Positions 8,802-57,265 of a stretch of 64,000 nt of DNA are shown in pieces. The translations under genes were made by a program, and so were the position numbers. Each line of letters starts with the position of its first letter. Position 1 is the first letter of the stretch. The notes below the pieces were generated by a model. It made no database searches and had not been told where the DNA came from. It saw only the letters and a list, made by a program, of their open reading frames with translations. Origin of the DNA: a virus; the IMG/VR virus record IMGVR_UViG_3300009159_000062, positions 6,348-70,347 of that record, one strand, 5' to 3'.

Positions 8802-8802
8802 A

Positions 8803-42602: not shown

Positions 42603-43253
42603 TTATAAAGGCATCCATTTATTTGGCTTTACTCCAACTAGACTATTCATTGGTGTAATATCATATGCAATTGTTATTCTCTTACTATCAAAAAACCAGT
42701 CATCTCTTCCATGTGGGTGCCCAGTTTCTGAAAGAATTGCTCGATTATTTTTATTCACATTCTCAAAAACATTATTCTTTTCTTTGTTAATTTGATAAAA
42801 AGTAGAAGATGGCTCTGCCTCTACACAATAATATCCATGAAACCAAGGAGCCCCTAGGCCATCAGAATGATCATGAAAATGAGAAGGATGTTTTAATGGA
42901 TTGACACCATTGCTTCCAATTGTTTTAAGGTCTGAGTTAAACCATCCATGAATTAGATATTTTTGACTATCAAAATCAATGCCATAGTATTCACAGGCCT
43001 GCATAGTTAATTTTTTTAATGCTTCTTTTAGTTTAAATATTTCTGGATTAACAAAAGTAAATATGTTATAGTAATTAATTCCCAATTGAGTGAGTGTGCC
43101 TGGCTGATTCCTATCATACTTTTTTAAAATATCACTTGGAACTGATAAAATATTCTCTGTAAAAATTTTTTCTTCTATTTCAGATAAATATTGTTTTAAT
43201 GACTCTAAGTCATTGTCTAATGTAACATCAAAAAACTTATGGCTTGGTTTCAT
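42603..43253 (-). CDS. putative 2OG-Fe(II) oxygenase
   Basis: GWFN...HFHDH...FHGYYCV...GHPHG...RITIAYD. Confidence 0.65.
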   Translation of the reverse strand: MKPSHKFFDVTLDNDLESLKQYLSEIEEKIFTENILSVPSDILKKYDRNQPGTLTQLGINYYNIFTFVNPEIFKLKEALKKLTMQACEYYGIDFDSQKYLIHGWFNSDLKTIGSNGVNPLKHPSHFHDHSDGLGAPWFHGYYCVEAEPSSTFYQINKEKNNVFENVNKNNRAILSETGHPHGRDDWFFDSKRITIAYDITPMNSLVGVKPNKWMPL

Positions 43254-43897
43254 GCTAGTGGAATCCAATGCTGTTCCCATTCTGGCATTATTCCCTTATG
43301 TGGTATTACGTCATAGGCTACTGTTATTCTTGGGCCTTCCCAATTCCAGTCTGCCATAGCATGAGGGTGCCCAGTTTCTGAAAGAATGGCTCTATTATTT
43401 TTATTGATATTCTCAAAATCTTTATCAAAAACTTTATAATGAGTTGTTGATGGCTCTGCCTTTACACAATAATAACCGTGAAACCATGGTGCTCCAGAGC
43501 CTCCATGTTCATGCCAATCTAATTTTCCAACATGATTGTAGTTAATATTAAACCAACCCTGAACCCAAAAATCTTCTTTTTCAAAGTCAATTCCGTAGTA
43601 TTCACAGGCTTCGAATGTCATTGATCTTACTGATCTAAATAATTTATGAATTGCTGGATGATAAAATTGAAATACATTGTACTTGTTCCATTTGCTAGTC
43701 GTTATGCTTCCAGAGGTATCCCAGAGTGTTTTTTCTCCCTGATCATTTTTTAATATTTCCCCATTTTTAATGCGGTCATATTGTTTTCCTAAAAATAATG
43801 ACAAATCGTCTAAGTCAGAGTTTAAATTTCTTTCAAAAAATTTATGCGTAACGCTAGTATTAATGCTAGTGCTTTTTAAAGGTACGTTGTCGTACAT
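43250..43897 (-). CDS. putative 2OG-Fe(II) oxygenase (paralogue of 42603..43253)
   Basis: GWFN...WHEH...FHGYYCV...GHPHA...RITVAYD. Confidence 0.65.
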   Translation of the reverse strand: MYDNVPLKSTSINTSVTHKFFERNLNSDLDDLSLFLGKQYDRIKNGEILKNDQGEKTLWDTSGSITTSKWNKYNVFQFYHPAIHKLFRSVRSMTFEACEYYGIDFEKEDFWVQGWFNINYNHVGKLDWHEHGGSGAPWFHGYYCVKAEPSTTHYKVFDKDFENINKNNRAILSETGHPHAMADWNWEGPRITVAYDVIPHKGIMPEWEQHWIPLA

Positions 43898-43945
43898 TTT
43901 ATCTCCCGTCTTTTTATATTAGTATATCATATAAAAAAATGAGAT

Positions 43946-45169
43946 TTATTTATTGTGAGTTAAATAATCTCCAGCAATAAACCAGTCTTGTGGTTCACAA
44001 CTAAATGATAGAACGGTATGTGATGTATCGTCTGTGTCTATTGATGTTACTGGAACTTCAATAATTGACCCATCTTCTGCTACCTTGATTAATGTGTCTC
44101 CGATAGCAACTCCACCTGCTTCAATAAATACATAGAACGGATTGCCTTTAATAAACATTGGGTGATTTAAAGAAAACTTTGAGTTGCTTTCTCCGTTAAA
44201 ATAAATAACCTCTTGGACAATTGATGGGACTATTGCGGTAACAGTTACGTCAACAAGACCAGTACTAGTTGTAGTTGGTATTGCAATACTTCTCCAGTCA
44301 GAATCTGTTTGATCTCCATCGCCCAATGGTAACTCTGCTATGCCTATTGTTCTCATTTGATCATCAATTTGTATATCTTTTGCTGCAATTGTTCCACCTG
44401 GTACTCTAATTAAAGTGTCTTCATGAACGCATGGTCCAACTGACCAAGGCGTAAAGCCAAATGCGCCGAATGGAGTGAATCCAAACGGGGTGAATCCAAA
44501 CGGGGTGAATCCAAACGGGGTGAATCCAAAAGCACCGAATGGAGCAAATCCAAATGGTGTGAATGAGAATGATGTAAGTGTTGCAGAATATTCAGAGTAT
44601 TCTGAATTTCCATTAGCATTATTTGCTCTTACACGATAAGCCTGAGCAGTTCCTGCTTCTTGTCCCACAGAAACAGAAGTTGATCCTGTGTTGCCAGATT
44701 TGCTATCATTTGATTCCCAATCATAACTAGTAATTGCTGAGCCACCAGTTGCAGGGGCTGTCCAAGAAACATCATCTGTTGCTGCTGAGCCTTGAGCAGT
44801 TGCAGTAGGTGCTGATGGTTTATTTGGAACAGTTGTTGCAGTAATGCTATTAGATGCTGCGGATGCTGGAGAATTTCCAATTGAGTTTGTTGCTATGACT
44901 GTAAATGTATATGCTGTGTCTGATTGTAAACCAGTTACAGATATAGGAGAAGATGATCCAGTACCAGTATATGATCCTGGAGTGGATGTTACTGTATAAG
45001 ATGTGGCAGCAAGTGAGTTTGCTGGCAAAGAAAATGTTACATCTGCCCGTCCATTATTGTATGCACGTCCAGATGGGACATTTGTTGCGCTAACTGACTC
45101 TGGGGCTAATGGCTCCACAAAGTCATTTGATGCTTGGGACTTTCTGCCCGTTCTCTTACCTGATGCCAT
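43946..45169 (-). CDS. FN3x2 + (FTPFG)n + C-terminal Hint-domain protein
   Basis: GLQSDTAYTFTVIATN and YRVRANNANG FN3 motifs, FTPFG repeats, GP|CVHEDT...SLNH...WFIAGDYLTHNK-stop. Confidence 0.8.
   Translation of the reverse strand: MASGKRTGRKSQASNDFVEPLAPESVSATNVPSGRAYNNGRADVTFSLPANSLAATSYTVTSTPGSYTGTGSSSPISVTGLQSDTAYTFTVIATNSIGNSPASAASNSITATTVPNKPSAPTATAQGSAATDDVSWTAPATGGSAITSYDWESNDSKSGNTGSTSVSVGQEAGTAQAYRVRANNANGNSEYSEYSATLTSFSFTPFGFAPFGAFGFTPFGFTPFGFTPFGFTPFGAFGFTPWSVGPCVHEDTLIRVPGGTIAAKDIQIDDQMRTIGIAELPLGDGDQTDSDWRSIAIPTTTSTGLVDVTVTAIVPSIVQEVIYFNGESNSKFSLNHPMFIKGNPFYVFIEAGGVAIGDTLIKVAEDGSIIEVPVTSIDTDDTSHTVLSFSCEPQDWFIAGDYLTHNK
44444..44569 (-). repeat. coding tandem repeat FTPFG; perfect 15-bp unit GTGAATCCAAACGGG x3 plus a partial copy at 44475-44530
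   Basis: Read directly. Confidence 0.95.
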
Positions 45170-45193
45170 TATCTACTCCTTTAATTTTGTTTG

Positions 45194-46927
45194 TTATGCT
45201 GAAAGATCGCCGAATACTACCCAAGAATCAGTTGCACGCTTAAATAGTGTACAAGATGACCACCGTGTTCGTAGTTTTAGGCCTGGGGTAGAGTTAACAG
45301 TAACTCCGCTATCTCCTGCAATTGTAACCTGTCCTGTTCCTGTCTGAAGAATATCCAGAGTAGTTCCGACTGGGTAAGCAACTGCGCTATTTAGTGGGAT
45401 AGTAATTGTTGTTCCTGATGCTGAATTTACTTCAATTAAAGAATCTCTTTCAGATGTTGCTGAAAGTGTGTATGAAGCAGTCTTAGAAATAATTGGTGTC
45501 CGTGAAGGCACGCCTTCTTTTGTTTGTGTTCCATCTGTATACGCAATACCATTTGCAGCAACAGTTACAAGACCTGTAAATGTTGGGCTAGCAATCGGGG
45601 CTTTTGCAGAAAGATCTGTTGTGAGACCTGAAATTTTAGACTGTGCAATTGCTGCTGAAGCATTAATATCTTCGTTAAGAATTGTTCCATCAAGAATCAT
45701 TGTTGAAGTTACTGTTCCTGTTGGAAGAGTGACTGTTCCTGTAAATGTTGGTGAAGCAAGTGGTGCTTTTAATGCAATTGCGTTTGCAGTTGTTGCTGCA
45801 AAATTAGCATCATCACCCAGTGCTGCTGCAAGTTCATCAAGAGTATTTAGAAGTCCTGGTGCAGAATTAGTTAATATAGCAATTTCTTGCTGCACAAACG
45901 CTGTAGTAGCAATCTGTGTTGTATTAGTTAATGTATTTGCTGTTGGTGCAGTTGGAGTACCAGTAAGTGTTGGTGAAGCAAGTGGAGCCTTAAGATCAAG
46001 GGCTGTTTGTGTAGCACTTGAAACTGGCTTGTTGGCATCTGTTGTATTATCAACATTTCCAAGACCTACATGTGACTTTGTAACACCAGATACTGTTCCA
46101 GTAAATGTTGGTGAAGCAATAGGTGCATATGTGGTTGCTGCTGTTGAAGACTCAAGTTTTGCTGAAAGATTAGAAACTAAATCTGTAATCTTAGATTGAG
46201 CAATTCCATTTGCTAATTTAGCATCTGTTACTGCTCCGTCTTTAATTTTTGCTGTTTCTACAGAATCAGTAGCAAGTTTTGCTGCTGTAACTGCTCCGCT
46301 TGCAATCTTTGCTGTCTCTACTGCATCAGAAGCAATCTTTGCTGCTGTTACTGCGGTGTTGGCAATCTTGGCATCAGTTACAGATCCGTTTACTGGTGTA
46401 CGCTCATTAGTAAGTGCTGCGTTGTCATTATAAACAAGGTTTAGAGTATTAGAAATACCGTGAACACTTGTATTTGCTGATGTATGTGCACTTGCATTGC
46501 CAGTCAGCCAAGATATTTCTGAAGTTGTGTTGGCAGTTAAGTTAGTAACATTACTTGTTAGGTCTGATATTGAGTTTGAATTTATTGCTATAGTATTCTG
46601 TAAACCATTTAAACTTGTTGTAACGGTATATGCATAGTTTGCATCTCCGTTAATCGAATTTGCTAACTCCCAAATACTATTAAGGGCGTTTGGAGCATTT
46701 CCAACTAGGTCTGCGACTGCTGCGTCTACTAGGCCTTGAACTTCTGATGAGTCAAATACTATAGATGCATCTACGAAGTATGCTAGGCTTGTCCAAGCAC
46801 TTGATCCGTTACCCATTTTAAATTTATTTGTATCTGTTTCAAAACCAATTTCACCTGCTGCTAGAGTTGGGTTTGCTGCAGTCCATTGTGCTGCAGTTCC
46901 TCTGCGCTGTTGCATTCTTGTTGCCAT
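45194..46927 (-). CDS. fibre protein (Mtd_N/hyaluronidase-like N-terminus, VT.AK(I/L)A repeats, C-terminal adapter domain)
   Basis: MQQRRGTAAQW...LAAGEIGFETDT, APLASPTFTG repeats, LNTLDELAAALGDD. Confidence 0.75.
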   Translation of the reverse strand: MATRMQQRRGTAAQWTAANPTLAAGEIGFETDTNKFKMGNGSSAWTSLAYFVDASIVFDSSEVQGLVDAAVADLVGNAPNALNSIWELANSINGDANYAYTVTTSLNGLQNTIAINSNSISDLTSNVTNLTANTTSEISWLTGNASAHTSANTSVHGISNTLNLVYNDNAALTNERTPVNGSVTDAKIANTAVTAAKIASDAVETAKIASGAVTAAKLATDSVETAKIKDGAVTDAKLANGIAQSKITDLVSNLSAKLESSTAATTYAPIASPTFTGTVSGVTKSHVGLGNVDNTTDANKPVSSATQTALDLKAPLASPTLTGTPTAPTANTLTNTTQIATTAFVQQEIAILTNSAPGLLNTLDELAAALGDDANFAATTANAIALKAPLASPTFTGTVTLPTGTVTSTMILDGTILNEDINASAAIAQSKISGLTTDLSAKAPIASPTFTGLVTVAANGIAYTDGTQTKEGVPSRTPIISKTASYTLSATSERDSLIEVNSASGTTITIPLNSAVAYPVGTTLDILQTGTGQVTIAGDSGVTVNSTPGLKLRTRWSSCTLFKRATDSWVVFGDLSA

Positions 46928-46979
46928 TTATATTGCCTCCGTGGGTAATAAACTTATGATGTAATTATAACAGATATTT

Positions 46980-47435
46980 TTAATTAAAATTATCTGTTGC
47001 AACTCCACCGTCGTATGTTGCTGTCCAACTGTTAGTGCTTGGTAGTCCGCCTTCTGCTGGAGTACCTTGTGGAGCATTATAAAATCCACTAGATACAAAT
47101 TGGCTTACTATAAATCCAGTTCCATCAATCGCTGTATCGTGAATGTGGTCTGGAAGGCTTGTTGTGTCATCTACTGCTGCTTGTGTATACCATGTTCCAT
47201 TGTAGTAAACGTTAACTCTTGAAGTTAATGTATCAAACCATAATTGTCCATTAACTGGTGTTGCTGGGGCTGTAGCACCTGATGGCATTGCCCCAGTAAC
47301 AGAGTCTACGTATGCTTTTGTAGCAGCATGTGTGCTTTCAGTAGGAGTGGCAACAGTAACTGTGCCTCCAAATGTACCGCCAAGTGTGACAGAAAGTCCA
47401 TTCTTGACTTTGAAGTCTTTATTTACTGTTGCCAT
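46980..47435 (-). CDS. fibre-associated structural protein
   Basis: KDFKVKNGL, HAATKAYVD, GQLWFDT. Confidence 0.6.
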   Translation of the reverse strand: MATVNKDFKVKNGLSVTLGGTFGGTVTVATPTESTHAATKAYVDSVTGAMPSGATAPATPVNGQLWFDTLTSRVNVYYNGTWYTQAAVDDTTSLPDHIHDTAIDGTGFIVSQFVSSGFYNAPQGTPAEGGLPSTNSWTATYDGGVATDNFN

Positions 47436-47458
47436 CTTTTACTCCTCGTATTTTTTAG

Positions 47459-48826
47459 TTATTTTAAGATTGTTCCGACAATCATAACATCGGAGTTATT
47501 ATTGGCGGTTGTAACACGAACACGAACATCGTTGCCAGAAACATCTGCTGTAACTGATCCAAGAGAACCGTTTGTTCCTACCATTGCATATTCTGTGATT
47601 GCAACGTTATCTGATGTATCAAGTGTTAAGATAACTTTTGAAACATCTGTGTGAGATCCATTGGCAATTTTAACCAAAAACTCACCTGAGCGGTAGTCTG
47701 CCTTGGCCCATGATGCTGCTGTGCTTGTGCTTGCTGTTGCTACAGTTGCCTGTGCTGCTATTTGCTTTGCAACATTGTTAATCTCTACTGCTACAAAGTC
47801 TGGAACTACTGCTTCAAGAGCAGCAACTGCACGAGCATTTGTAAAGTATAGATTTGAAGTACCTTCTGAAAGGTCATCTGTATCAGAATCTGCCACTCCG
47901 TTTTCTGCGGAAATAGTAAGTCCTGAACCTGAACCTGTGATAGTAATGTTTGTAAGTGTTGCACCAGTTAAAAGTTCTGCTGCAGAAGTCTTTGCACGGG
48001 TATTTGTGTAATATAGATTTGTTGAACCTTCTTCAATTGCATCTGTATCAAGTGCGTCGATTGCAGAAGAAATTGCATTGGACATGCCAATTACAGAGAT
48101 TGTATTTCCTGTAATATCGATATTGTCTCCTGCAGTTAAAATATTTTGCTTTAATGCAACTGAGTTAGCAAGTGTTGTTGCAAAGTTTGCGTCATCACCA
48201 ATTGCTTGTGCCAACTCATTGAGAGTGTTAAGAAGATCTGGTGCTGAATCAACAAGACTTGATACTGCTCCATCAACATACGCAGTTGTTGCAAGAACAT
48301 TTGAGTTTGTTCCAGCAGCAGCGGTTGGTGCTGTTGGTGTACCAGTTAGGTCTGGCGAAGCAAGTGGTGCCTTATCGTTAAGTTGTGCTTGAACGTTTGA
48401 GGCTGCTCCACTTAAATAATTAAGTTCAGTTGTTGTTGCTGTAATGCCATCTAAAACATTAACTTCTGCTGCTGTAGCAGTTACGTTTGTTAGGTTTGTT
48501 GTAGCAATGTCAATATTTGATGAACCATCAAATGAAACACCAGCAATATTTCTTGCTGTTTCTAATGTTGTGGCTGTATCTGCATTACCAGTAACATCTC
48601 CAACTAGGTTTGCTGTAATAACGTTTGCTGAAAAACTTGCACTTCCATTACGCTTTACAACTGTGTTTGCGGTTGCAGCATCTGTTGCTGTTCCGCCGAT
48701 TAATCCAATGATGTAGTTTTGATCATCGGTTTTCTTTGTTAAAACGTCAAAATTGTTTACGGTTGCTGTAGAACCTTCAACAATAAGACCATTTTTTACT
48801 TTAAAGTCTTTTGATACTGTTGCCAT
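47459..48826 (-). CDS. fibre protein
   Basis: KDFKVKNGL, LNTLNELAQAIGDD, D.(I/L).EG..NLY(Y/F)TN.RA repeats. Confidence 0.7.
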   Translation of the reverse strand: MATVSKDFKVKNGLIVEGSTATVNNFDVLTKKTDDQNYIIGLIGGTATDAATANTVVKRNGSASFSANVITANLVGDVTGNADTATTLETARNIAGVSFDGSSNIDIATTNLTNVTATAAEVNVLDGITATTTELNYLSGAASNVQAQLNDKAPLASPDLTGTPTAPTAAAGTNSNVLATTAYVDGAVSSLVDSAPDLLNTLNELAQAIGDDANFATTLANSVALKQNILTAGDNIDITGNTISVIGMSNAISSAIDALDTDAIEEGSTNLYYTNTRAKTSAAELLTGATLTNITITGSGSGLTISAENGVADSDTDDLSEGTSNLYFTNARAVAALEAVVPDFVAVEINNVAKQIAAQATVATASTSTAASWAKADYRSGEFLVKIANGSHTDVSKVILTLDTSDNVAITEYAMVGTNGSLGSVTADVSGNDVRVRVTTANNNSDVMIVGTILK

Positions 48827-48841
48827 TTTCTATCTCCTTGA

Positions 48842-49288
48842 TTAGGCCTTAAGTCCAATTCGTGCATAACGAACTGTGACTGGCTTGATTGCTGGATCTG
48901 GGGTCACAGTTATTGCAACTGTATTTCCAGTCCTTGAGACACTAACGGTTCCAATATTCCCATTGTTGTCAATTGTTCCATATTCGCTAACGTTTACATT
49001 TGAACCGTCAACCAATATTGTCATTTCTGTAGCATAGTATTTGTTATCGCCAGCAGAAGTCTTTGCAATAGAGATGATATATTTAACCATTCTCCATACT
49101 GTTGCGTCAAAACTATCAATTACTGTAGCATTTTCAATGCCAGAAATTGTGTTTTCATTGTTACCAGAAGATCCCAAATCTGTAGACTGGGCAGCGGTAG
49201 AGTCAATTAATTTCTCGTAATCAGTCTGTGTTGGACGATCACCAGTTTGAAATAAGGTCTTTACTGTGGATAAGGATACGATTGCCAT
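48842..49288 (-). CDS. fibre-associated structural protein
   Basis: FQTGDRPTQ.DY..LIDS, C-terminal domain similar to that of 47459..48826. Confidence 0.6.
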   Translation of the reverse strand: MAIVSLSTVKTLFQTGDRPTQTDYEKLIDSTAAQSTDLGSSGNNENTISGIENATVIDSFDATVWRMVKYIISIAKTSAGDNKYYATEMTILVDGSNVNVSEYGTIDNNGNIGTVSVSRTGNTVAITVTPDPAIKPVTVRYARIGLKA

Positions 49289-49303
49289 GTTGTTATTATA
49301 ACA

Positions 49304-49873
49304 TTATTTTTTAATACTTTTTATCCAAAACTGATAGTTATTAATTATAATTTCAACACTGCCTTTATTCTCTTCTAAAAACTTGTCAATACCCAATTTT
49401 GGTTCTAATTCAATGTTTTTAGTATCATGTTTCCATTGATAGTCATCGAAGGCTAATACTCCATCCCGCTTTAAAAGCGGTAAAGAATGAACTGCATCCT
49501 GATAAACTGCTTCTGCCGTATGATCTCCATCAATATATATGAAGTCAAACTTTTCAGTACAAGACTGTAGATATGAAATGCTTGTACCTTTGTGTTTTTT
49601 AATATTTGAAAATTTGGACATTCTTTTGTCATAGAAAGACTCAACATTAGACCAGTCAAATTCTTTATGAATAAGTTCTTCAGATCCTTCCCAAGTATCA
49701 ACATCTGTTAAAGTAGATGTTGGATCTGTAAGTATATTTTTTAATATCCATTCTGAGGCATCGCCAGTATAGGCACCTATCTGTAAAAAATTAAGGTTTG
49801 GCATATGCCTATATCGGCTTAAGCCATATTCAAAATTTTTATTATGTGGCTCAAACCAATTAGGATACTCCAT
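49304..49873 (-). CDS. class I SAM-dependent methyltransferase (Methyltransf_24-like)
   Basis: LQIGAYTG, VDTW, FDFIYIDGDH, GVLAFDDY. Confidence 0.82.
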   Translation of the reverse strand: MEYPNWFEPHNKNFEYGLSRYRHMPNLNFLQIGAYTGDASEWILKNILTDPTSTLTDVDTWEGSEELIHKEFDWSNVESFYDKRMSKFSNIKKHKGTSISYLQSCTEKFDFIYIDGDHTAEAVYQDAVHSLPLLKRDGVLAFDDYQWKHDTKNIELEPKLGIDKFLEENKGSVEIIINNYQFWIKSIKK

Positions 49874-50597
49874 TTTGCTCCCAAAAAGATATTACATCTC
49901 TTCTGGATTTGTGATGTATTCCGTCTGGGTGCTCCTTATTCTCTTTTGTATTATGGGGAGAGGTAACTGATGTTTCAAAATCCATAGAATAGGTAAATAG
50001 TGGCTTGGAGTAACTTTTAACTCCGTGGTAAATAATAAAGTCTGCAAGGGCTCTATAGTCAGATGGCAAAACATATTTTCCGTCAACAAAGTATTTGTCA
50101 ACTATTTTTTTTGCACCTTCTTTGGTTATTAGATAGCAGGCTGCAGACCAATTTCTATGTTCTCTCATGTGGAATGAGGTGTTGACTTGAAAATTATGAA
50201 TAATGCAAAACTGCAAAACATCATATTTAGGTTTTATGGAATTAAGAAAATCTTCAAAGGTAAAGTTCCAATATTTTACTGTTTCAAAACTAAGATCATC
50301 TTCTATGATAATTGCATAGTCAGAGTCTGAGGTTTCAAGCCATTTTTTTATTGTGCTTAAATGTGAAATAGTGGCTCCTAGTTCTGAATCAGTTAGAGAT
50401 AAGTGATGTCTGTTAAAAACAAGGCTTTCCCAATCTGTACTATTTCCGTCAACGGCCTCTATAATATTATAATTAGATAAATTGCTTTCTTCTAGTTGAT
50501 TTTTTATATAGTCAAATCTATCTGTCCTTGATTTTAAATTAATAACGTATACAGGCTCAAAGCCTTTTAATTTATTTAAACCAGTATGTTCCGACAT
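49860..50597 (-). CDS. glycosyltransferase family 25-like
   Basis: YVINL..RTDR, EAVDG, ELGATISH, IIEDD, AACYLIT. Confidence 0.82.
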   Translation of the reverse strand: MSEHTGLNKLKGFEPVYVINLKSRTDRFDYIKNQLEESNLSNYNIIEAVDGNSTDWESLVFNRHHLSLTDSELGATISHLSTIKKWLETSDSDYAIIIEDDLSFETVKYWNFTFEDFLNSIKPKYDVLQFCIIHNFQVNTSFHMREHRNWSAACYLITKEGAKKIVDKYFVDGKYVLPSDYRALADFIIYHGVKSYSKPLFTYSMDFETSVTSPHNTKENKEHPDGIHHKSRRDVISFWEQNGVS

Positions 50598-51285
50598 GTT
50601 GAACCCTCACATAAGGAGCAAGGTAAATTTTACCACCGCTCATTTTCCATAATTTACAAAATTGATAATCTTCCGATAATAGCCTTTCGCTATCGTGATC
50701 AATTATTGCTTGCCAAAAATCATAAATTGGATCTCCAAAAACAATAGACCCCACTTCTTGCTGATCACATCTGTATTGTGGGATATCTTTTTTAATTGTT
50801 TCAAAAACTTTACGAGAGATTAGCATAAGGCCAGTACCCATATAATCAACCTCAACTATGTTTTTTGGATTTTCTCTTAATTTTTCTCTTTGATTAGGGT
50901 TCATGTTTACATTATAAATAGCAGTAAAGTTTTCTAAATCTGGCTTATCCTCTTTTGCAGCCTTTCTAACTCTTTCCCAGTTAATTCCTTTCATTGGCAC
51001 AGCAGCACCAATCAAATCAGCCCCCTCTGAAATCATCTTTATAATTCCGTCTGCTCCAAAACCTTCATCTGCATCAATAAATAAAAGATAGTCGCTATTA
51101 GATCTTAAAAACATTTCAGTTAATAGATTTCGTGCTCGTGTGATTAAAGACTCATTAGCAATATCTATAAAGTTTGCGGTGTGGCCTGAATTTGACAATG
51201 CCTTAACTAATTCAAGAACACTTTTCATGTATACGCCACTGCACATTCCACCGTACATTGGTGTTGCAATTGTAATATGTGCCAT
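50572..51285 (-). CDS. GT-A fold glycosyltransferase-like protein
   Basis: IATPMYGG, ESLITRARN, LFIDAD, GTGLMLI, LSEDYQFC. Confidence 0.75.
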   Translation of the reverse strand: MAHITIATPMYGGMCSGVYMKSVLELVKALSNSGHTANFIDIANESLITRARNLLTEMFLRSNSDYLLFIDADEGFGADGIIKMISEGADLIGAAVPMKGINWERVRKAAKEDKPDLENFTAIYNVNMNPNQREKLRENPKNIVEVDYMGTGLMLISRKVFETIKKDIPQYRCDQQEVGSIVFGDPIYDFWQAIIDHDSERLLSEDYQFCKLWKMSGGKIYLAPYVRVQHVGTYWFK

Positions 51286-51296
51286 ACACTTCCTAT

Positions 51297-51521
51297 CTAT
51301 AGAATGTAGTTACTAAACCCAATAACTTGCAATGGAATTGGCGGTGGATTAGTAGAACTATATCCTTCAACTCCAACATTAATAAACCTTATGCGAAACG
51401 GTAAAACATCATTAATCCTTACAACTCTTGTTTCTGGAACAATCTTTGTAATTGAATAATTCTCTAAAGTTATACTTCTTGTTTTATTAGCACCCTTGTT
51501 GGATAGGACTGCTTTTGCCAT
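51297..51521 (-). CDS. small hypothetical structural protein
   Basis: Coupled ORF. Confidence 0.55.
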   Translation of the reverse strand: MAKAVLSNKGANKTRSITLENYSITKIVPETRVVRINDVLPFRIRFINVGVEGYSSTNPPPIPLQVIGFSNYIL

Positions 51522-51931
51522 TAATCTGTTACATCTTCTAGGATAATCATGCTACCCTGAGCAACTGTCCAAACCTGAAGATTACCAGCAGAGGAAAGTT
51601 GTATGTCAAAGATGTCTCCTGTTTGAAGAGATACTGATTCTGATGCTTCTAGTGAAACTGTAAATTCGCCATCTCCATCATCTGCATCGTGAATTGGTGT
51701 TAATGCCATAATGGTAGTTGCATCATCTGTAATTACCCCCAAATTTTTAGAAAGATTTGGACGTTTAATTTTCATTGTAATTGTCCAATCTGGAATATTC
51801 AATGGTTGTTTAGCATCATCAGTTACGTAAACACGAAATGCAGACGTGTCTCCACGAACCACTGTCCATGTTACTGTTGGAGGCTTATTGCCAACCTCAT
51901 ACTGACCGCTACTACTTCTTGTTGTTGCCAT
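51521..51931 (-). CDS. BppU-N-like structural protein (RGDT family)
   Basis: WTVVRGDTS...FDIQL...WT, similar to 58191..58568 and 56894..57244. Confidence 0.55.
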   Translation of the reverse strand: MATTRSSSGQYEVGNKPPTVTWTVVRGDTSAFRVYVTDDAKQPLNIPDWTITMKIKRPNLSKNLGVITDDATTIMALTPIHDADDGDGEFTVSLEASESVSLQTGDIFDIQLSSAGNLQVWTVAQGSMIILEDVTD

Positions 51932-51947
51932 GATTTAATTATAACAC

Positions 51948-52478
51948 TTAAAGTCCGTTTTTAACAGCACCCCAAGTGGCATTTCCTCCTTTAATTGGTG
52001 ACACTAATAATTTTCCATTGGTTGCGTGGGAATATGCAACCACAGCAATAACGGAAGATCCTGATGCTGGCTTGGTGGTAGTGAGTCCGCCAGATGATCC
52101 AACATATAACTTATCACCCTCATCATAAGAAGAAGTATTGATATTTTCTAAAACTCCAACGGTGACCACAACTCCATCATTTGCGTCTTGCATCGTGGCT
52201 TTTGCCAAACCAATGCATGGAAATGTGTCAATATTGCTTGCTTGAGATTTTGATATGGTGGTCCTGCTGTTTGCATATCCTGTTATATATACAGGAGTTC
52301 CTTTTGTTATTTCTGCCCCGCTAACATTTCTTACGTCTAGAGACAGGTATGGAACCTGCAGAGCAGTTAATAAATCATTAACCTTTTCTGCCAATTCCTG
52401 CATATCAGAGTGAACATTAACAGGATCATCTGATATAGGATATGGTATTTCTTGAGGATTTGTTAAACCAGTAGCCAT
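51948..52478 (-). CDS. structural/decoration protein
   Basis: IPYP..DPVNVHSDM, KGTPVYITG, GDKLYVG..GGLT. Confidence 0.55.
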   Translation of the reverse strand: MATGLTNPQEIPYPISDDPVNVHSDMQELAEKVNDLLTALQVPYLSLDVRNVSGAEITKGTPVYITGYANSRTTISKSQASNIDTFPCIGLAKATMQDANDGVVVTVGVLENINTSSYDEGDKLYVGSSGGLTTTKPASGSSVIAVVAYSHATNGKLLVSPIKGGNATWGAVKNGL

Positions 52479-52511
52479 GATTTTACATTATACCATTAAA
52501 AGTATACCTAC

Positions 52512-52541
52512 TTGACTTTTACCAATTTCACTTGGTATAAT
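52512..52541 (+). promoter_or_regulatory. sigma70/SigA promoter for transglycosylase
   Basis: TTGACT-18 nt-TATAAT with TGG extension, then leader hairpin GACACC-GTAA-GGTGTC and AGGAGG SD. Confidence 0.7.
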
Positions 52542-52589
52542 TAATGTATTGACACCGTAAGGTGTCATTTTGTTCTAGGAGGCACTACT

Positions 52590-53126
52590 ATGACGAAAGA
52601 CGATTTTGTAGTTGGAGGCTTAGCATTTTTAATGGTTGTTTCAACTTTGTTTAATGCAACCAACGCTCAAGCAGTAAAGAAAGAAGAGTTTCTGGCACGG
52701 GTTGCTTCCCAGCAGGCATTGGAGCAAACCTCACACATAGAAATTATGAAAAAATACAAGAATGCCAAATCTTTAAATGAAGAACAATGCAAAGAACTTT
52801 TATCGGCAGTTGGTTTTGAAGGAAAAGCCTTAAAGGTTGCTTGGGCGGTGGCTCAAAAAGAATCAAACTGTAGACCTGTGGCTATAAACAATAACCACAA
52901 TACTGGAGATAACTCTTATGGCATATTCCAAATAAACATGATTGGTGAATTGGGACAGGCTAGACTAGAAAAATTCGATCTTGATTCTAAAAAAGATCTT
53001 CTTGATCCAGTTACAAATGCAAAAATTGCTTTCTATATGACCAATAAAGGGGTAGACTGGTCTTCTTGGACATATTTAGATGGAGAAAGATTTAAACAGT
53101 TATTGCTGGAATACCCGAAATACTAA
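52590..53126 (+). CDS. secreted/anchored lytic transglycosylase (SLT-like)
   Basis: N-terminal hydrophobic segment, AQKES, YGIFQIN, LLDPVTNAKIA, WSSW. Confidence 0.82.
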   Translation: MTKDDFVVGGLAFLMVVSTLFNATNAQAVKKEEFLARVASQQALEQTSHIEIMKKYKNAKSLNEEQCKELLSAVGFEGKALKVAWAVAQKESNCRPVAINNNHNTGDNSYGIFQINMIGELGQARLEKFDLDSKKDLLDPVTNAKIAFYMTNKGVDWSSWTYLDGERFKQLLLEYPKY

Positions 53127-53767
53127 AAATAAGCGATTGCTAGATATTGACTTCCAGTAGTTATTGGGTAAAATTTATGAGACCAGTCACTACCAGATGG
53201 GTAGATGATGACATCTCCTTCGTTAAGAGTTGTTGGATCATTACCAACTCTATCTTTAAATTGAATCTCCCCTCCAGAATAACCGCTGCTTAAGCAAATT
53301 ATTATTGTATTTTCATGTAAGGCGCTATTCCTGCTTTGATCATCAATAAACTCTGAAGCCTTTATATTTTTACATATAGTCCATGGCTTGATCGTCTTTG
53401 CTGTTTGTTCTTTTATTTTTAAATAATCAATAATAAATGGGAAAGCAAAAAAATTTAAAGTGCTTTCTAGTTTTAGTTTTTTTATGTGAAACTCTGACTG
53501 TTTATTCATTATGTCAAAATAAGGGTTAAAAAATGGAGCCTTATTCTTTATTTTTTTTTGAGATTTTAAAAAAACTCTTGTATCTTTTATTGTAAAAATT
53601 TCACTAAAGTCTGTTAAATTAGTATTGTTTATATTTTTTTTAGATGATATTTCCCACATATTTTCTGCACAATCTGAATCTTCTAAATCTTTTAAAATTG
53701 TAAAAAAATCAAACATTGAATTATTTTTATATAACAAAATATCAGTATCTAATTGTATTTTATTCAT
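53123..53767 (-). CDS. prolyl-hydroxylase-type 2OG-Fe(II) oxygenase-fold protein
   Basis: YSGGEIQF...GDVIIYPS...SHKFYPITTG; HxD motif not evident. Confidence 0.6.
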   Translation of the reverse strand: MNKIQLDTDILLYKNNSMFDFFTILKDLEDSDCAENMWEISSKKNINNTNLTDFSEIFTIKDTRVFLKSQKKIKNKAPFFNPYFDIMNKQSEFHIKKLKLESTLNFFAFPFIIDYLKIKEQTAKTIKPWTICKNIKASEFIDDQSRNSALHENTIIICLSSGYSGGEIQFKDRVGNDPTTLNEGDVIIYPSGSDWSHKFYPITTGSQYLAIAYF

Positions 53768-53770
53768 AAG

Positions 53771-54355
53771 TTATCCGATTCCGTTAGCGAGTACTATAAA
53801 ATTTTTTGTAAAATAAAAATGTCCTTCGTTTAATTTTAAAGAGTAGGCCTGGTCAAAAACTGTACGTCCTGGAGGTACAACTGCTTCTGTTTCTGTAAAA
53901 GATGACTCTGTATTTTTTTTTAATATAGAACTACGACTGTAGCCTTTCTGTGTGCCTTTTGCTATCTCGTCAATATTTGCAATAGTAAAAGCAGCAAGAG
54001 CATTTTCTTTATCTTTTATTTTGTTATATTTTGCTTCATAGCCGTCGAATCCTAAATCATTTAATTTTATAGCAATATATTGATTTTTCTGTATTCTATT
54101 TTGATTTACGTATGTAAAATCTGTCATGTTGTTGCTTTCTGCAGAATACAGCGATGCTTCACAGATTTCATATTCATGAACAATTCTATCTCCTGCAATT
54201 ATTTTTGTAAAAATATCAGAAACATCTTCTATCCCATCTTGAGTAACCTTTATAGATAAAACTTTATCTCCCGCATTTAAATCTTGCGGATAAGACAGGC
54301 TTCCATTGCTTAAATATACTTTTTCTGAAAGTGGCAAAGATGAATCGTAAAACAT
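53771..54355 (-). CDS. stand-alone degenerate Hint-like protein
   Basis: SLPLSEKVYLSNGS...DLNAGDKVLS (block A-like) and AYSLKLNEGHFYFTKNFIVLAN (block F/G-like). Start trimmed to MFYD. Confidence 0.5.
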   Translation of the reverse strand: MFYDSSLPLSEKVYLSNGSLSYPQDLNAGDKVLSIKVTQDGIEDVSDIFTKIIAGDRIVHEYEICEASLYSAESNNMTDFTYVNQNRIQKNQYIAIKLNDLGFDGYEAKYNKIKDKENALAAFTIANIDEIAKGTQKGYSRSSILKKNTESSFTETEAVVPPGRTVFDQAYSLKLNEGHFYFTKNFIVLANGIG

Positions 54356-54356
54356 T

Positions 54357-55205
54357 TTACTTGTTATGTACCAAAAGATTACCAGCAATAAACCAATCTT
54401 GTGGTTCACAACTAAATTGATATACATTGTGGGATGTGTCGTCTGTGTCAATAGAAGTTACTGGTAATTCTGTAATTGATCCGTCAAGTCCAATTTTGAT
54501 TAAAACATCTCCAATTGCAACTCCTCCAGCCTCTACAAAAACATAAAATGGATCACCTTTTATAAACATTGGATGATTTAAAGAAAACTTTGAACCAATA
54601 TCTCCATTAAACCAAACAACCTCTTGAACAATAGATGGAACTATAGCCGTAATTTTTGTTACAGAAATTCCTTGACTAGTTAAGGTTGGGATTGCGATAG
54701 ATCTCCAATCTACCTCTGTATAGTCTGTACCGCTTAAAGGAATTTCTTCTATATTGATTGTTGAGATTTCCTGATCTATCTCTATATCTTTGGCTGGAAC
54801 ATCTCCCGTTGGAGTTCTAACTAAAGTATCTTCATGCACGCAAGGGCCAACTACCCATGGAGTAAAGCCAAAAGGTGTAAATCCAAATGGAGTAAAGCCA
54901 AAAGGTGTAAAGCCAAAAGGGGTAAATCCAAAAGGGGTAAATCCAAATGCTCCAAATGGAGCAAAACTAAATGTATAGTTAACCAAATTTACAATTTGGC
55001 CTAATTCTTCAACTGTTCCAGCGGGGATGTCTTGTGACTTAATTTTATTATTTAAATTAGAATCGCCAGTGCCTTCATTTGTTGTATTGTAGTTAAATCC
55101 TAGTCCGCTCAATGTAGACTCTGCTGTAGTTTTATCAACCCCGACTAAATTGGGAATTGAATTTCTACGAAATATTTTATTTCCACGGCCAGGATTTTTT
55201 GCCAT
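54357..55205 (-). CDS. PASTA + (FTPFG)n + C-terminal Hint-domain protein
   Basis: IPNLVG...AESTL...KSQDIPAGT...VNL PASTA, FTPFG repeats, GP|CVHEDT...SLNH...NLLVHNK-stop. Confidence 0.8.
   Translation of the reverse strand: MAKNPGRGNKIFRRNSIPNLVGVDKTTAESTLSGLGFNYNTTNEGTGDSNLNNKIKSQDIPAGTVEELGQIVNLVNYTFSFAPFGAFGFTPFGFTPFGFTPFGFTPFGFTPFGFTPWVVGPCVHEDTLVRTPTGDVPAKDIEIDQEISTINIEEIPLSGTDYTEVDWRSIAIPTLTSQGISVTKITAIVPSIVQEVVWFNGDIGSKFSLNHPMFIKGDPFYVFVEAGGVAIGDVLIKIGLDGSITELPVTSIDTDDTSHNVYQFSCEPQDWFIAGNLLVHNK
54855..54971 (-). repeat. coding tandem repeat FTPFG with synonymously varied codons
   Basis: Read directly. Confidence 0.9.
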
Positions 55206-55825
55206 TATGGAACCATATCTCCCATTGCAAGCCAGGTGTTAGTATCTCGTTTAATTAGTGTGGCACTAGACCATTGAGTTCTTAATTTTAATCCTGGAGT
55301 TGCGTTTATAGTTACCCCACTTGCACCAGCAAGAGTAACTTGTGATGAGCCAGTTTGTAGAATATCTATTGCAGTGCCAATTGGAAATGCCACAGAACTA
55401 TTAAGTGGTACGGTAACGGTTCCACCAGCAGACATTTCAACCATCTTAAAAGAGTCTGCAATTGCCAATGTATATGAAGATGATTGTTGATTAAATGTAT
55501 AAACTGGATCTGTAATTGATTGCCAAGTAGATCCATCATACACTTGTAAATCATTAATTGTGTTGCCAATACTGTCTTGTTTTAAAAATACAACTGTTCC
55601 ATATATTGGTGTCGGAATTGCCACATTTCTAGCAGATGGATTAAGGAAAATATTTAAATTCTTTGCAACAATTACAGAGGAAAAGTTTACTGGACTTGAA
55701 AACTCTTGTGCTGCTGTCCATGTGTACGCTGCTGATGTGTTTACAATTCCTGCAATTGGATACCACTGGCTTGTTGCTTCATCATAAACATATGCTGGTC
55801 TTGCGGTTGGATTAATTGTTGCCAT
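55205..55825 (-). CDS. fibre-associated protein with the same C-terminal adapter domain as 45194..46927
   Basis: SYTL...PLNS.VA(F/Y)P.GT..DILQTG..QVT.AG.SGVT.N.TPGLKLRT.WSS.TL.KR.T..W...GD shared. Confidence 0.7.
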   Translation of the reverse strand: MATINPTARPAYVYDEATSQWYPIAGIVNTSAAYTWTAAQEFSSPVNFSSVIVAKNLNIFLNPSARNVAIPTPIYGTVVFLKQDSIGNTINDLQVYDGSTWQSITDPVYTFNQQSSSYTLAIADSFKMVEMSAGGTVTVPLNSSVAFPIGTAIDILQTGSSQVTLAGASGVTINATPGLKLRTQWSSATLIKRDTNTWLAMGDMVP

Positions 55826-56268
55826 TAGATCACCCTCAAAAAAGTATTAGCACTTACATCATAAACAGACATCTCTAAAGGACTACTTCCCTTTTTAATC
55901 CAAAGCAAGCCATCAACAAGTCCTGATGTTGGCGTAGTGTTTTGATAAATAGATGTGGCAGATAAAGGCATGCCCGTATACTCAGCATCTGTGTTTACCC
56001 ATAAAAAACCATCTACTGGAGATGTTGGCTCTGTATCTTGAACTTCTGCTGCTGCTGCTGGGTTTAATAAATTATCATTAATTTGAGTTTGTAAATCATT
56101 AAGAGTGTAAGCCATAGATGGGTTTGTTAATGATTCTAAGTTGGTATTGTTTACATCATAGGTTGAAGATCCGTAGTGATACAGTCTTAGGGCAGCCTGA
56201 ATGTCTGCGGCATCATCATAGCCAGGTATTTTAGTCGGATATACATTTCCTATATTTTCAGAAGCCAT
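55825..56268 (-). CDS. structural protein
   Basis: TKIPGYDDAADIQAALRLYHYG, two P....DG.LW motifs. Confidence 0.6.
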   Translation of the reverse strand: MASENIGNVYPTKIPGYDDAADIQAALRLYHYGSSTYDVNNTNLESLTNPSMAYTLNDLQTQINDNLLNPAAAAEVQDTEPTSPVDGFLWVNTDAEYTGMPLSATSIYQNTTPTSGLVDGLLWIKKGSSPLEMSVYDVSANTFLRVI

Positions 56269-56291: not shown

Positions 56292-56894
56292 TCACGATTC
56301 CTCTGACGGGTTTAAGACAATTGTAATTAGCATATGCACAGTTACCGTTTCGGATAAACTACTCCAGGTTCCAGCATCTAGTTCTGCTGCTTTTAAAGAT
56401 ATTGAAAGAGTATCGCTACTTGCCCCCACAATTGACACGGCATTTATAGATGATGCGGTTGGATTGGAGTGACCTATAGAAAATTTAATTGAAAAATTTT
56501 CTTCGGTAAGCGGAGTTCCTGTTGTTTCAACTATATCGGCAATTGGAATTAAAATACTTGTTGTTCCGCTAGTAAAAGTTTGTAAAAAATTTCTAGAGTA
56601 TACTGTTGGGTTAATTTTTAAAATTGGAACCCATGTGTTTGTCCCAAGACTTGAAATGTATTGGTACATGTACGAGTACTCTTCGCCAGGGGCATTATTT
56701 ATATATAAATCGTTTAAATATAAGGTTTGGCTAAAAATACTGCCACTAGAAGTAAATAGACTTGGAGAGCCAGTTCCAACAAAAACTTTGCTTCCTCTTA
56801 TACCAGTGGCGCCTATGTCTAGTTGAACATTTACGACTGGTGGTGGTCCAAGAACTGTAATTTCTTCGGTGTTAACTAAAACCTCAACAGCCAT
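56292..56894 (-). CDS. structural protein
   Basis: GATGIRGS...GTGSP...NDLYIN. Confidence 0.6.
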   Translation of the reverse strand: MAVEVLVNTEEITVLGPPPVVNVQLDIGATGIRGSKVFVGTGSPSLFTSSGSIFSQTLYLNDLYINNAPGEEYSYMYQYISSLGTNTWVPILKINPTVYSRNFLQTFTSGTTSILIPIADIVETTGTPLTEENFSIKFSIGHSNPTASSINAVSIVGASSDTLSISLKAAELDAGTWSSLSETVTVHMLITIVLNPSEES

Positions 56895-57244
56895 TAAACT
56901 GCCCCAGTTATATCATCTGTGACAGTGATTGATCCAGTAAGAATTGTAATAATATTTGTAGCGCTTGAGTTAATTTGAACGTCATAAACATAGGTTCCAG
57001 ATGAAAGGGTTCTGCCTACGGCTGGAAGAATTGTACAAACTATTGTGTCATTAGTTATATTAATAATCGCCTGTGCTGTTGTTTTGACTCCAGTAGTTCC
57101 TCTGGCTGTTGCAATTGTATATGCTCCATTTCCAAGGTAACTATCTAACTGAAAGGTTGTTCCATCAGAATTTTTGGGGGATATAACAAACTCATGTGTA
57201 TCACCACGATAGTAATTAAAATTATATGTGCCTGGAAATGCCAT
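56894..57244 (-). CDS. BppU-N-like structural protein (RGDT family)
   Basis: True start MAFPGTYNF after AAGGAG SD; the track's N-terminal extension is the tRNA. Confidence 0.65.
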   Translation of the reverse strand: MAFPGTYNFNYYRGDTHEFVISPKNSDGTTFQLDSYLGNGAYTIATARGTTGVKTTAQAIINITNDTIVCTILPAVGRTLSSGTYVYDVQINSSATNIITILTGSITVTDDITGAV

Positions 57245-57265
57245 GGTTCTCCTTTTGCTTTTGTC

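Follow-up and report, generated by a model that had tools for sequence, protein, structure and literature searches.

The DNA analysed here (hereafter, the window) is a 64,000-nt stretch from an uncultured virus, comprising positions 6,348 to 70,347 of the IMG/VR record IMGVR_UViG_3300009159_000062. The record is linear and 70,347 bases long, so the window is most of it; CheckV estimates its completeness at 65%. The minus strand of the window carries two cassettes with an identical order of genes: a gene that ends in an "adapter" domain is followed by a gene for a protein with an aromatic/proline repeat and a C-terminal Hint domain, and then by genes of the double-stranded beta-helix (DSBH) fold. 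Hint domains are known as inteins, as processors of Hedgehog proteins, as bacterial intein-like (BIL) domains of bacterial surface proteins, and as modules of pretoxins. Here, we describe a BIL-type Hint domain in a new setting and with new companions, for which we found only automatic or one-line annotation. The best explanation of the region is that it is the host-recognition module of an uncultured siphovirus, coding for two split tail fibres.

Two cassettes with the same gene order

The genes of each cassette are listed in the order of the minus strand, followed by a further DSBH gene of the window.

Cassette 1
45194..46927 (-): tail fibre, 577 aa, with an Mtd_N N-terminus, fibre repeats, and the adapter domain at its C-terminus (residues 480–577)
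43946..45169 (-): putative distal fibre piece, copy 1, 407 aa, consisting of a basic N-terminus, two FN3 domains, FSF-(FTPFG/AFG)n-FTPWSVGP, a Hint domain from Cys247 to Asn406, Lys407, and stop
43250..43897 (-): oxyB, DSBH, 48 nt after the Hint gene
42603..43280 (-): oxyA, DSBH, a paralog of oxyB, with which it has a 31-nt overlap

Cassette 2
55825..56268 (-): p147, putative proximal (N-terminal) piece of a split fibre, assigned from fusions in relatives
55205..55825 (-): adapter, 206 aa, with a C-terminal domain (about residues 100–205) in common with the fibre
54357..55205 (-): putative distal fibre piece, copy 2, 282 aa, consisting of a basic N-terminus, PASTA (residues 17–74), FSF-(FTPFG)n-FTPWVVGP (78–121), a Hint domain from Cys122 to Asn281, Lys282, and stop
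53771..54355 (-): stand-alone, degenerate Hint-like protein
53123..53767 (-): oxyC, DSBH/PF13640-like, 3 nt downstream of the degenerate Hint gene

Outside the cassettes
39744..40376 (-): p210, a fourth DSBH gene, on the far side of the gene for ribonucleotide reductase

Gene spacing in both cassettes is operon-like. In cassette 2, the gaps from p147 through the adapter, the PASTA protein, and the degenerate Hint gene to oxyC are −1, −1, 1, and 3 nt; in cassette 1, those from the fibre through the FN3 protein and oxyB to oxyA are 24, 48, and −31 nt. A first-pass annotation, made from the sequence alone, had described this duplicated gene order. The two cassettes bear it out, and every open reading frame (ORF) that it named is present on the minus strand where it had been placed. 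All four DSBH genes found in the window lie within ~4 kb of a Hint gene, three of them inside the cassettes.

Corresponding proteins of the two cassettes are related. The C-termini of the fibre and the adapter are identical at 54 of 94 residues (57%; E 3e-34), including TPGLKLRT.WSS.TL.KR, and the two distal pieces at 152 of 204 residues (75%; E 2e-113) over the repeat and the C-terminal domain. This agrees with what the first-pass annotation had seen, i.e., a ~90-aa C-terminal domain common to the first genes, and a repeat with highly similar Hint domains in the second.

The C-terminal domain of the distal pieces

The C-terminal domain of both distal pieces is a Hint domain, closest to BIL domains. 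It has 161 aa and no endonuclease insert. Taken alone, the window proteins miss the Pfam cut-off (best match Intein_splicing, E 0.051). A profile of 91 sequences, searched against PDB sequences, matches the BIL domain of Clostridium thermocellum (2LWY; E 2e-12) and then >20 inteins. When the 91 members were compared singly with Pfam, 28 matched PF14890 (Intein_splicing, E ≤ 0.001), three PT-HINT (PF07591), three Hint_2, and one Hint. A hidden Markov model (HMM) of the Hint domain matches copy 1 with E 8.2e-61. The AlphaFold2 (AF2) model of the domain has a predicted local distance difference test score (pLDDT) of 92.9 and a predicted TM-score (pTM) of 0.87, and Foldseek returned 61 PDB matches at E ≤ 0.001; those listed are all BIL domains, inteins, or Hedgehog domains, all with probability 1.00 and mostly with a query-normalised TM-score (TMq) of 0.53–0.67. 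The top matches are BIL2 of Tetrahymena BUBL1, the TvoVMA intein, 2LWY, and Ssp DnaB, with Hedgehog at ranks 20–21. The Hint assignment made at first pass is thus sound.

With residues 112–282 of copy 2 as query, a scan of 1.84 billion cluster representatives gave 231 proteins at E ≤ 0.001 (clusters at 50% identity), 85 of them at E ≤ 1e-10; as clusters at 90% identity, the relatives number 207. The matches nearly always reach the C-terminus of the protein, and the tail after the domain is 0–8 aa long in 75 of 86 representatives (0–1 aa in 29, 2–8 aa in 46). An assembly artefact or a chance repeat is ruled out, since the architecture recurs in hundreds of independent contigs.

Catalytic residues were counted in 222 members with the full domain, a pooled set that is rich in close relatives. 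Cys1 is present in 216 of these, the block B Ser/Thr in all 222, the terminal His in 201, and the terminal Asn in 202; at the position of the block B His, 94 members have His, 115 have Gln, and 13 have Glu. In both window proteins the order is C...S-L-N-H...H-N-K-stop, and the family has a motif of its own, CEPxDWFIAGxxLVHNK. Among the 111 representatives that have His-Asn, 105 carry a Lys at +1 or +2. We do not rely on this Lys, because HNK also ends cellular tandem Hint domains such as those of locus L030. Two subgroups depart from the common ending: one has a conserved tail of 13–19 aa (K.GxFQGPT.RD), and another ends in LVIS or IVIS without His-Asn.

As described in the available text of PMC4031507, type A BIL domains have Cys1, block B, a C-terminal His-Asn, and no Cys/Ser/Thr at +1. 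The phage domain has no Cys/Ser/Thr at +1, no endonuclease, and no C-terminal domain, and therefore matches a type A BIL rather than a mobile intein, a Hedgehog domain, or a pretoxin-HINT. A mobile intein is ruled out because the domain is terminal, +1 is Lys, and there is no endonuclease. The pretoxin-HINT of polymorphic toxins is ruled out because no toxin domain follows the Hint domain (the three members that match PF07591 notwithstanding), and a Hedgehog-type (Hog) domain because there is no sterol-recognition region and the protein stops one residue after His-Asn. Type A BILs have two ligatable flanks; in both window proteins only one Lys stands between the domain and the stop codon, which leaves no substantial C-flank for splicing.

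The stand-alone gene at 53771..54355 encodes a protein without Cys1 and without the terminal His-Asn. It is weakly Hint-like by a local Hint HMM (E 7e-4), by its ortholog in locus L004 (E 4.4e-5), and by Atlas feature matches to viral Hint/PT-HINT clusters (0.92–0.93). The first-pass label of a degenerate Hint gene is kept on these matches, with its start moved: the most likely start is the ATG at 54355, 1 nt past the stop codon of the upstream gene.

Hint domains of this type also occur in bacterial metagenome-assembled genomes (MAGs). A 961-aa protein from a Patescibacteria MAG (L028, 4337–7222) combines a signal-like N-terminus with Tyr-rich SNYYAQ repeats and, at its C-terminus, a Hint domain ending in LVHNK. 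In L030 (6872–7861), a protein from a Planctomycetia MAG has tandem Hint domains, each ending in LVHNKG or AVHNKGGG before the next Cys.

A probable split tail fibre

The 577-aa protein is a recognizable tail fibre: it matches Mtd_N (PF18454, E 1.2e-14) and a PHROG tail fibre family (E 3.6e-30), and the adapter-domain HMM at residues 480–577. The adapter family comprises 1828 proteins and has no Pfam domain, and a profile of it found nothing meaningful among PDB sequences. By tblastn against 50,697 phage records, the adapter matches 253 records, of which 223 are Gordonia phages, at the C-termini of "minor tail proteins".

Gene fusions in relatives connect the pieces. In four loci (L014, L016, L019, and L020), p147 residues 1–63/65 are fused to the adapter domain in single proteins of 239–242 aa. 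Residues 1–59 of p147 match the N-terminus of the Hint protein P0154 (916 aa), and residues 1–66 match that of P0206 (745 aa); in both proteins, the p147 N-terminus is followed by the adapter domain at about residues 117–232, with the repeat and the Hint domain at the end. L027 encodes a single 688-aa protein made up of the adapter, Pro/Thr linkers, Cys-rich modules, an aromatic/proline stretch, and the Hint domain. These fusions indicate that p147, the adapter, and the Hint protein follow one another along a single fibre, whose distal end is the Hint domain, and it is very probable that p147 or the fibre protein, the adapter, and the Hint protein form one fibre. The placement of these genes in a virion appendage, proposed at first pass, thus holds on two grounds: the minor tail proteins of the 223 Gordonia records and the fusions. 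A docking prediction for the adapter and the PASTA-Hint protein scored 0.00 in two runs without controls, and carries no weight either way.

Binding modules and the aromatic/proline repeat

Upstream of the Hint domain, the two distal pieces differ in their binding module. Pfam finds fn3 in two stretches of copy 1 (E 3.2e-9) and PASTA in copy 2 (E 4e-7). Across the family, fn3 occurs in 23 of 91 members and PASTA in 17, consistent with the swappable module suggested in the first-pass annotation.

The FTPFG units of the repeat are encoded by 15-nt tandem repeats, with 3.7 copies at 100% in copy 1 (44475–44530) and 5.7 copies at 88% in copy 2 (54862–54947). The PASTA-type relatives span 260–310 aa, a spread that would be expected if the FTPFG copy number shifts by slippage of the 15-nt repeats. 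In the 50 aa before Cys1, aromatic residues and Pro together make up ≥40% in 55 of 86 representatives; in a control stretch 100–150 aa upstream, this is the case in 2 of 62. The units vary among relatives (FTPFG, FFPP, YFPP, HFPP, YTFTP, PPII, and VAPP), and sometimes GGGG follows a Cys-rich module. Judging from these sequences, what is conserved in the repeat is composition rather than sequence.

One family member, P0167 (283 aa), is unusual in its N-terminal part. Residues 1–84 match the first half of the oxyAB family described below (local HMM, E 2e-29), with the DSBH core missing, and run into the end of an FN3 domain, the FTPFG repeat, and the Hint domain. P0167 is either a recombinant gene or a chimeric assembly.

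Genes of the oxygenase fold

By its predicted structure, oxyB has the fold of 2-oxoglutarate (2OG) oxygenases. Neither oxyA nor oxyB matches any Pfam family, even at E 10, or any PHROG, and a profile of their family, which counts at least 1028 unnamed proteins, has no match among PDB sequences. The AF2 model of oxyB, built with 37 sequences (pLDDT 89), is a double-stranded beta-helix. Foldseek returned 131 PDB matches at E ≤ 0.001, led by the uncharacterised structural-genomics proteins 3BVC and 2RG4 (target-normalised TM-score, TMt, 0.68), and next by FtmOx1, ThoJ, proline hydroxylases, PHD2, and the prolyl 4-hydroxylase (P4H) of P. putida. In the 37 sequences, H129-x-H131, H140, H179, and R190-x-T192 are invariant; the resulting H-x-H...H...R-x-T pattern is a variant of the H-x-D/E...H iron triad with R-x-S/T for 2-oxoglutarate that is usual in the superfamily. 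The first-pass annotation had called both genes oxygenases; the model of oxyB upholds the fold, and neither gene falls in a Pfam or PHROG family.

The oxyC protein reaches PF13640 with E 0.022 and 16.2 bits, under the cut-off of 27, and p210 has no Pfam match of its own. A local PF13640-type HMM, built from seven locus proteins that pass Pfam, matches oxyC with E 4e-7, p210 with E 7.3e-11, and the L004 ortholog of oxyC with E 4.9e-9. By these comparisons, oxyC and p210 are weak relatives of PF13640; for oxyC, which was labelled "oxygenase-fold" at first pass, support thus comes from the local HMM and not from Pfam.

Linkage in relatives

Using the Hint domain, we fetched 20 IMG/VR loci, of which 18 had sufficient upstream sequence to be judged. 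A scan of genome contigs with a 10-sequence alignment added nine loci; an earlier scan of genome contigs, with patterns drawn from a single protein, had found no relative. An adapter-domain gene lies directly upstream of the Hint gene in 16 of the 18 assessable IMG/VR loci (11 distinct sequences), as well as in L026. The two misses, L021 and L022, are of the same distant, 588-aa type.

A DSBH gene lies 6–95 nt from the Hint gene in L005–L018, L021, L022, and L027, and 590 nt from it in L004, L026, and cassette 2 of the window. In three diverged records (29–43% complete), all of the PF13640 matches (6, 8, and 10) are in a single array that abuts the Hint gene, downstream of it in two records and upstream in the third. 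The rows of up to 10 PF13640 paralogs are found in records of 31–47 kb (L013–L021); such a local expansion of a single enzyme family is unusual for a phage. The type of repeat tracks the type of enzyme: FTPFG occurs with oxyAB genes, and FFPP or HFPP with PF13640 arrays. This covariation is only suggestive, because it amounts to about two lineages of related phages.

The duplicated gene order is genuine and lies far outside what chance would give. Both fold assignments, Hint and oxygenase, stand, and the linkage is kept in relatives, with gene fusions supporting it. Conserved linkage in relatives was a point on which the first-pass proposal could have failed; the adapter-Hint pairs, the fusions, and the adjacency of DSBH genes all speak for it.

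Genes between the cassettes and the collagen-like protein

The following genes lie between the two cassettes or, for the last, at the head of cassette 2.

49304..49873 (-): methyltransferase, PF13578, E 2.3e-17
49860..50597 (-): GT25, PF01755, E 8.8e-18
50572..51285 (-): putative GT-A glycosyltransferase, phrog_34859, E 1.6e-8
57362..58084 (-): collagen-like (G-X-Y) tail fibre protein, PHROG tail fibre/collagen-like minor tail, E 1.4e-10

For the three genes between the cassettes, the first-pass labels hold by Pfam in the case of GT25 and the methyltransferase; the GT-A call stands by PHROG only, with a weak Pfam match to Anp1 (E 0.0023). The methyltransferase-GT25-GT-A block is kept in L005 and L007–L012. 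GT25 is present in the FTPFG-lineage record and in none of the three FFPP-lineage records with collagen-like genes or arrays, a weak difference because those records are only 29–43% complete. The translation of the collagen-like gene contains a G-X-Y run with Lys in Y positions, and the gene is kept in L004, L014, L016, L019, and L020.

Proposed mechanism and alternatives

On balance, we lean toward a reading in which the locus encodes split tail fibres whose distal piece sheds its Hint domain, leaving an exposed repeat that is probably hydroxylated. The proximal protein, which would be the 577-aa fibre in cassette 1 and p147 with the 206-aa adapter in cassette 2, would end in a conserved docking domain of ~95 aa. 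The next gene would supply the distal piece: a short, basic N-terminus, a sugar- or peptidoglycan-binding module (two FN3 domains or PASTA), the repeat, and the BIL-type Hint domain. Cys1 would attack the carbonyl of the preceding Gly-Pro in an N-to-S acyl shift, assisted by the S-x-x-H motif; the thioester would then be resolved and the Hint domain would leave, making the aromatic/proline repeat the free C-terminal, distal end of the fibre tip. The DSBH enzymes encoded beside the Hint gene would most likely hydroxylate the repeat, with proline as the common denominator, and GT25, GT-A, and the methyltransferase may modify it further in this lineage. Cleavage, conjugation, and repeat modification are all predicted chemistry. 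Of the individual steps, we consider self-cleavage by the Hint domain likely; hydroxylation of the repeat by the adjacent DSBH enzymes is a tentative proposal, a little short of an even call. The term "RiPP-like", used at first pass by reference to ribosomally synthesized and post-translationally modified peptides, survives only as a loose analogy: rather than a peptide natural product from a short leader/core precursor, the predicted N-terminal product (~121 or 246 aa) is a fibre piece of 120–250 aa with a folded PASTA or FN3 module.

Several observations weigh against this reading. On the side of cleavage, the His-Asn end is absent in 31 of 142 representatives, Gln replaces the block B His in half of the family (115 of 222), and the residue before Cys1 is Pro in both window proteins; in engineered inteins, Pro at −1 slows N-terminal cleavage. 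As to hydroxylation, oxyA and oxyB belong to no Pfam family and carry H-x-H where the canonical motif is H-x-D/E. There is no oxygenase beside the Hint gene in L019 and L020 (cassette 2 of the FFPP lineage). The proposed link between oxygenases and the repeat draws on gene neighbourhoods, and the phages concerned all have related tail modules. Lastly, the arrays are near a module boundary, where fibre genes give way to ribonucleotide reductase (RNR) or portal genes, and accessory genes tend to gather at such boundaries.

The Gln in block B and the Pro before Cys1 would also suit a Hint fold without chemistry, i.e., a folded cap or receptor-binding knob that stays on the fibre tip of the virion. 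The LVIS/IVIS subgroup and the stand-alone degenerate copy at 53771..54355 point the same way. We hold such a cap to be highly improbable, since the conservation of Cys1 and His-Asn (216 and 201–202 of 222), across sequences down to ~25–30% identity, is hard to explain without catalysis, and both window copies have the full catalytic set. If the thioester does form, it could be passed to an amine instead of being hydrolysed, which would tie the fibre tip by a covalent bond to a lysine of the adapter or of another virion protein (a self-ligating decoration), to the Lys at +1/+2 or the short tail (splicing in the manner of type A BILs), or, on contact, to an amine of the host wall. The closest solved structure, BIL2 of BUBL1, makes an isopeptide from a C-terminus to a lysine without ATP, according to the accessible portion of PMC8616854, and type A BILs can join their flanks via a free amine, as far as the text available from PMC4031507 goes. 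Within the phage family, the Lys at +1/+2, the subgroup with the conserved K.GxFQGPT.RD tail, and the nearly invariant K180 and K192 of the adapter domain offer amines, and PASTA is by its Pfam family name a peptidoglycan-binding module. However, all of these acceptors are candidate amines only, the Lys of HNK may be a motif of a wider clade given the cellular tandem domains, and hydrolysis is the default fate of Hint thioesters that lack a dedicated nucleophile. We therefore regard transfer to an amine as unlikely.

The main rival to hydroxylation of the repeat accepts tips that self-cleave and differs in what the enzymes do: the DSBH, GT25, GT-A, and methyltransferase genes would serve the collagen-like protein, through hydroxylation of its lysines or prolines and through glycosylation, or would be unrelated accessory genes that have piled up where the structural module ends. 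This deserves serious weight, although we place it clearly below an even chance. Collagen-like proteins are the classical substrate of hydroxylases and GT25, and the GT25 family includes collagen hydroxylysine galactosyltransferases. The collagen-like protein, with its lysines in Y positions, lies in the same module and is kept in both lineages, making it a possible alternative substrate. With at least 1028 proteins, the oxyAB family outnumbers the 207 Hint relatives that were found, the oxygenase array of cassette 1 is at the fibre/RNR boundary, and the array of L021 stands before genes that lead to the portal. Viral P4H has been linked to collagen in tail fibres, its use being called cryptic, in the part of PMC9301287 available. 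Against this rival, the PF13640 matches of the three diverged records all abut the Hint gene, whereas the collagen-like gene, where present, is 4–5 genes upstream; the adjacency persists in L021 despite the change of side; and oxyC trails Hint genes at spacings of 1–3 nt within the structural module. The absence of GT25 from all three FFPP-lineage records with collagen-like genes or arrays points the same way, weakly, given their incompleteness.

A bolder version combines transfer and hydroxylation into a chemically armed adhesive, in which the Hint domain would remain on the finished fibre as a latent source of thioester and, upon contact, would covalently transfer the hydroxylated repeat to an amine of the host envelope; the recipients could also be lysines of the phage's own adapter. 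PASTA or FN3 would position the tip on peptidoglycan or glycan. Through the action of as many as ten P4H-like paralogs, the repeat would become a glue rich in hydroxyproline and perhaps in hydroxylated aromatics, like mussel foot proteins. We consider this decidedly unlikely. If true, it would be the first covalent "harpoon" used by a phage, and the 2OG-oxygenase genes that are abundant but unexplained in aquatic phages would gain a substrate.

Relation to known systems

Among known Hint domains, the phage domain shares most with the type A BIL of C. thermocellum, which is its best profile match and with which it has the type A residues in common. It differs in being located at the extreme C-terminus of tail-fibre pieces, in its one-Lys C-flank, in its own motif, and in being preceded, in most representatives, by a low-complexity aromatic/proline repeat. 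The top Foldseek match is BIL2 of Tetrahymena thermophila BUBL1 (6Y75, 6TMM; E 1e-7, TMt 0.73), a domain that, in the passages of PMC8616854 available, hands its upstream domain to a lysine as an isopeptide, and thus a working precedent for conjugation by a BIL domain. BIL2 is eukaryotic and has ubiquitin-like domains on both sides; its identity to the phage domain is 15–16%, and for the phage domain the acceptors are candidates only.

In its architecture, the phage protein also resembles Hedgehog. There, the C-terminal Hint domain of a secreted or extracellular protein removes itself by cleavage, and the N-terminal fragment ends up with a modified C-terminus. Both have a C-terminal Hint module; the fold match (1AT0, 6TYY) ranks only 20–21, with 9–10% identity, and the phage protein has a tail of 1 aa and no sterol-recognition region. 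Its hydrophobic element is its own aromatic repeat rather than an added lipid. Two phage systems follow a related logic. C-terminal chaperone domains of the peptidase S74 type remove themselves from tail spikes and fibres after assembly, and distal adhesins of the T2/S16 gp38 type are tip proteins encoded directly downstream of the fibre gene that dock on the fibre end. Pfam gave no match to such domains, and the fold and chemistry of the S74 type are entirely different (a Ser-Lys protease instead of a Hint thioester).

The one phage with comparable genes is Phage NCTB (LT598654), the only one of the 50,697 phage records that matches the Hint domain (tblastn, E 0.03). Its Hint genes match the local HMM with E 5e-32, 5e-20, and 1e-28, and are annotated "putative phage tail protein, contains intein domain", "intein domain protein", and "large intein domain protein". 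Three NCTB proteins also occupy ranks 4, 6, and 7 among the fold matches in BFVD. The region (L024, 4960–12219) encodes a collagen-like protein with a GGGG linker and a C-terminal Hint domain, a 153-aa stand-alone Hint protein that parallels the degenerate one at 53771..54355, and tail fibre genes. The third Hint protein is annotated with 1304 aa (the longest ORF has 1375 aa) and ends in GGGGGG-Hint. Unlike the phage described here, NCTB is a 258-kb jumbo phage in which no aromatic/proline repeat, adapter-domain gene, or oxygenase gene was seen within 12.5 kb.

For the oxygenases, the nearest parallel is PBCV-1, whose prolyl 4-hydroxylases act on proline-rich repeats (as cited in the portion of PMC9301287 available). 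In both cases, as far as that source goes, viral genes of the PF13640 type stand by genes for proline-rich repeat proteins, and the oxyB model matches prolyl hydroxylases; on the phage side, as many as 10 paralogs stand in an array, and there is another DSBH family, which is unclassified and carries H-x-H. In one brackish-sea survey, P4H-type genes are among the most abundant viral auxiliary genes, and their use is called cryptic (PMC9301287, from the text at hand). Arrays of such genes directly against genes for long proline/aromatic repeats therefore offer a concrete candidate enzyme-substrate pair for phage hydroxylases.

Other traces of the family consist of automatic names: members from uncultured phages in BFVD are called "Hint domain containing protein", "Fibronectin type III", or "PASTA_pknB domain containing protein". 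A literature search, with subscription journals and supplements outside its reach, found no study that deals with a Hint domain at the tip of a phage fibre or connects such a domain with oxygenases. It also found no study of the NCTB Hint genes, and an overview of jumbo phages that it did retrieve is without tail Hint domains. Papers on phiCbK, CBB, and CL131, in which both "Hint" and "tail fiber" occur, are about ordinary inteins, located in terminase, RNR, or dCTP deaminase. The present loci place a sizeable Hint family (231 clusters at 50% identity, 207 at 90%) at the very tip of phage tail fibres. If the domain does cleave itself, this would be a new way to finish or arm a receptor-binding fibre; should the chemistry be as predicted, the modular binding scaffold would carry a natural tag capable of self-cleavage or self-ligation.

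The phage and its host

The window encodes a portal, a prohead protease, a major head protein, a 2044-aa tape measure, a large polymerase (phrog_405), and a ribonucleotide reductase. The length of the tape measure implies a long, non-contractile tail. The portal (34121–35710, minus strand) is closest to those of Streptomyces siphophages of ~125–131 kb, with 46% identity, and the 1122-aa polymerase (5517–8885, minus strand) is the protein that matches phrog_405. Portal and polymerase together suggest that the phage is distantly related to large actinophages, even though its G+C content is ~35% (30–41% per 2-kb window). A megablast search with the whole region and tblastn searches with the 282-aa protein and oxyB found no match in the same 50,697 phage records.

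As to the host, our guess is a low-G+C actinobacterium, for which the portal kinship, the PASTA module, and the fibre-end domain common to minor tail proteins of Gordonia phages are hints. The 70-kb record (65% complete) gave no match to WhiB (PF02467), which served as a marker of actinobacterial phages. L026 and L027 were kept out of the host call because both are short contigs, apparently of phage sequence that was binned into Bacteroidota MAGs.

Three further features of the window are of note. The tape measure (20577–26711, minus strand) has an endolysin-like stretch near its C-terminus (phrog_380, residues 1870–1931, E 4.1e-8). A tRNA-Arg (CCG) gene lies at 57265–57337 on the minus strand, between the collagen-like gene and the next structural gene, and overlaps the 5′ end of the ORF listed at 56894..57322; the real start of this ORF is probably 57244, because its relatives begin at the equivalent of Met27. 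The sole plus-strand gene within the minus-strand structural module, at 52590–53126, encodes a 178-aa protein with a hydrophobic N-terminal stretch. Its only family match is a weak one to a PHROG of unknown function (E 1.4e-4), and it contains a segment, ...SYGIFQIN..., that we take to resemble lytic transglycosylases.

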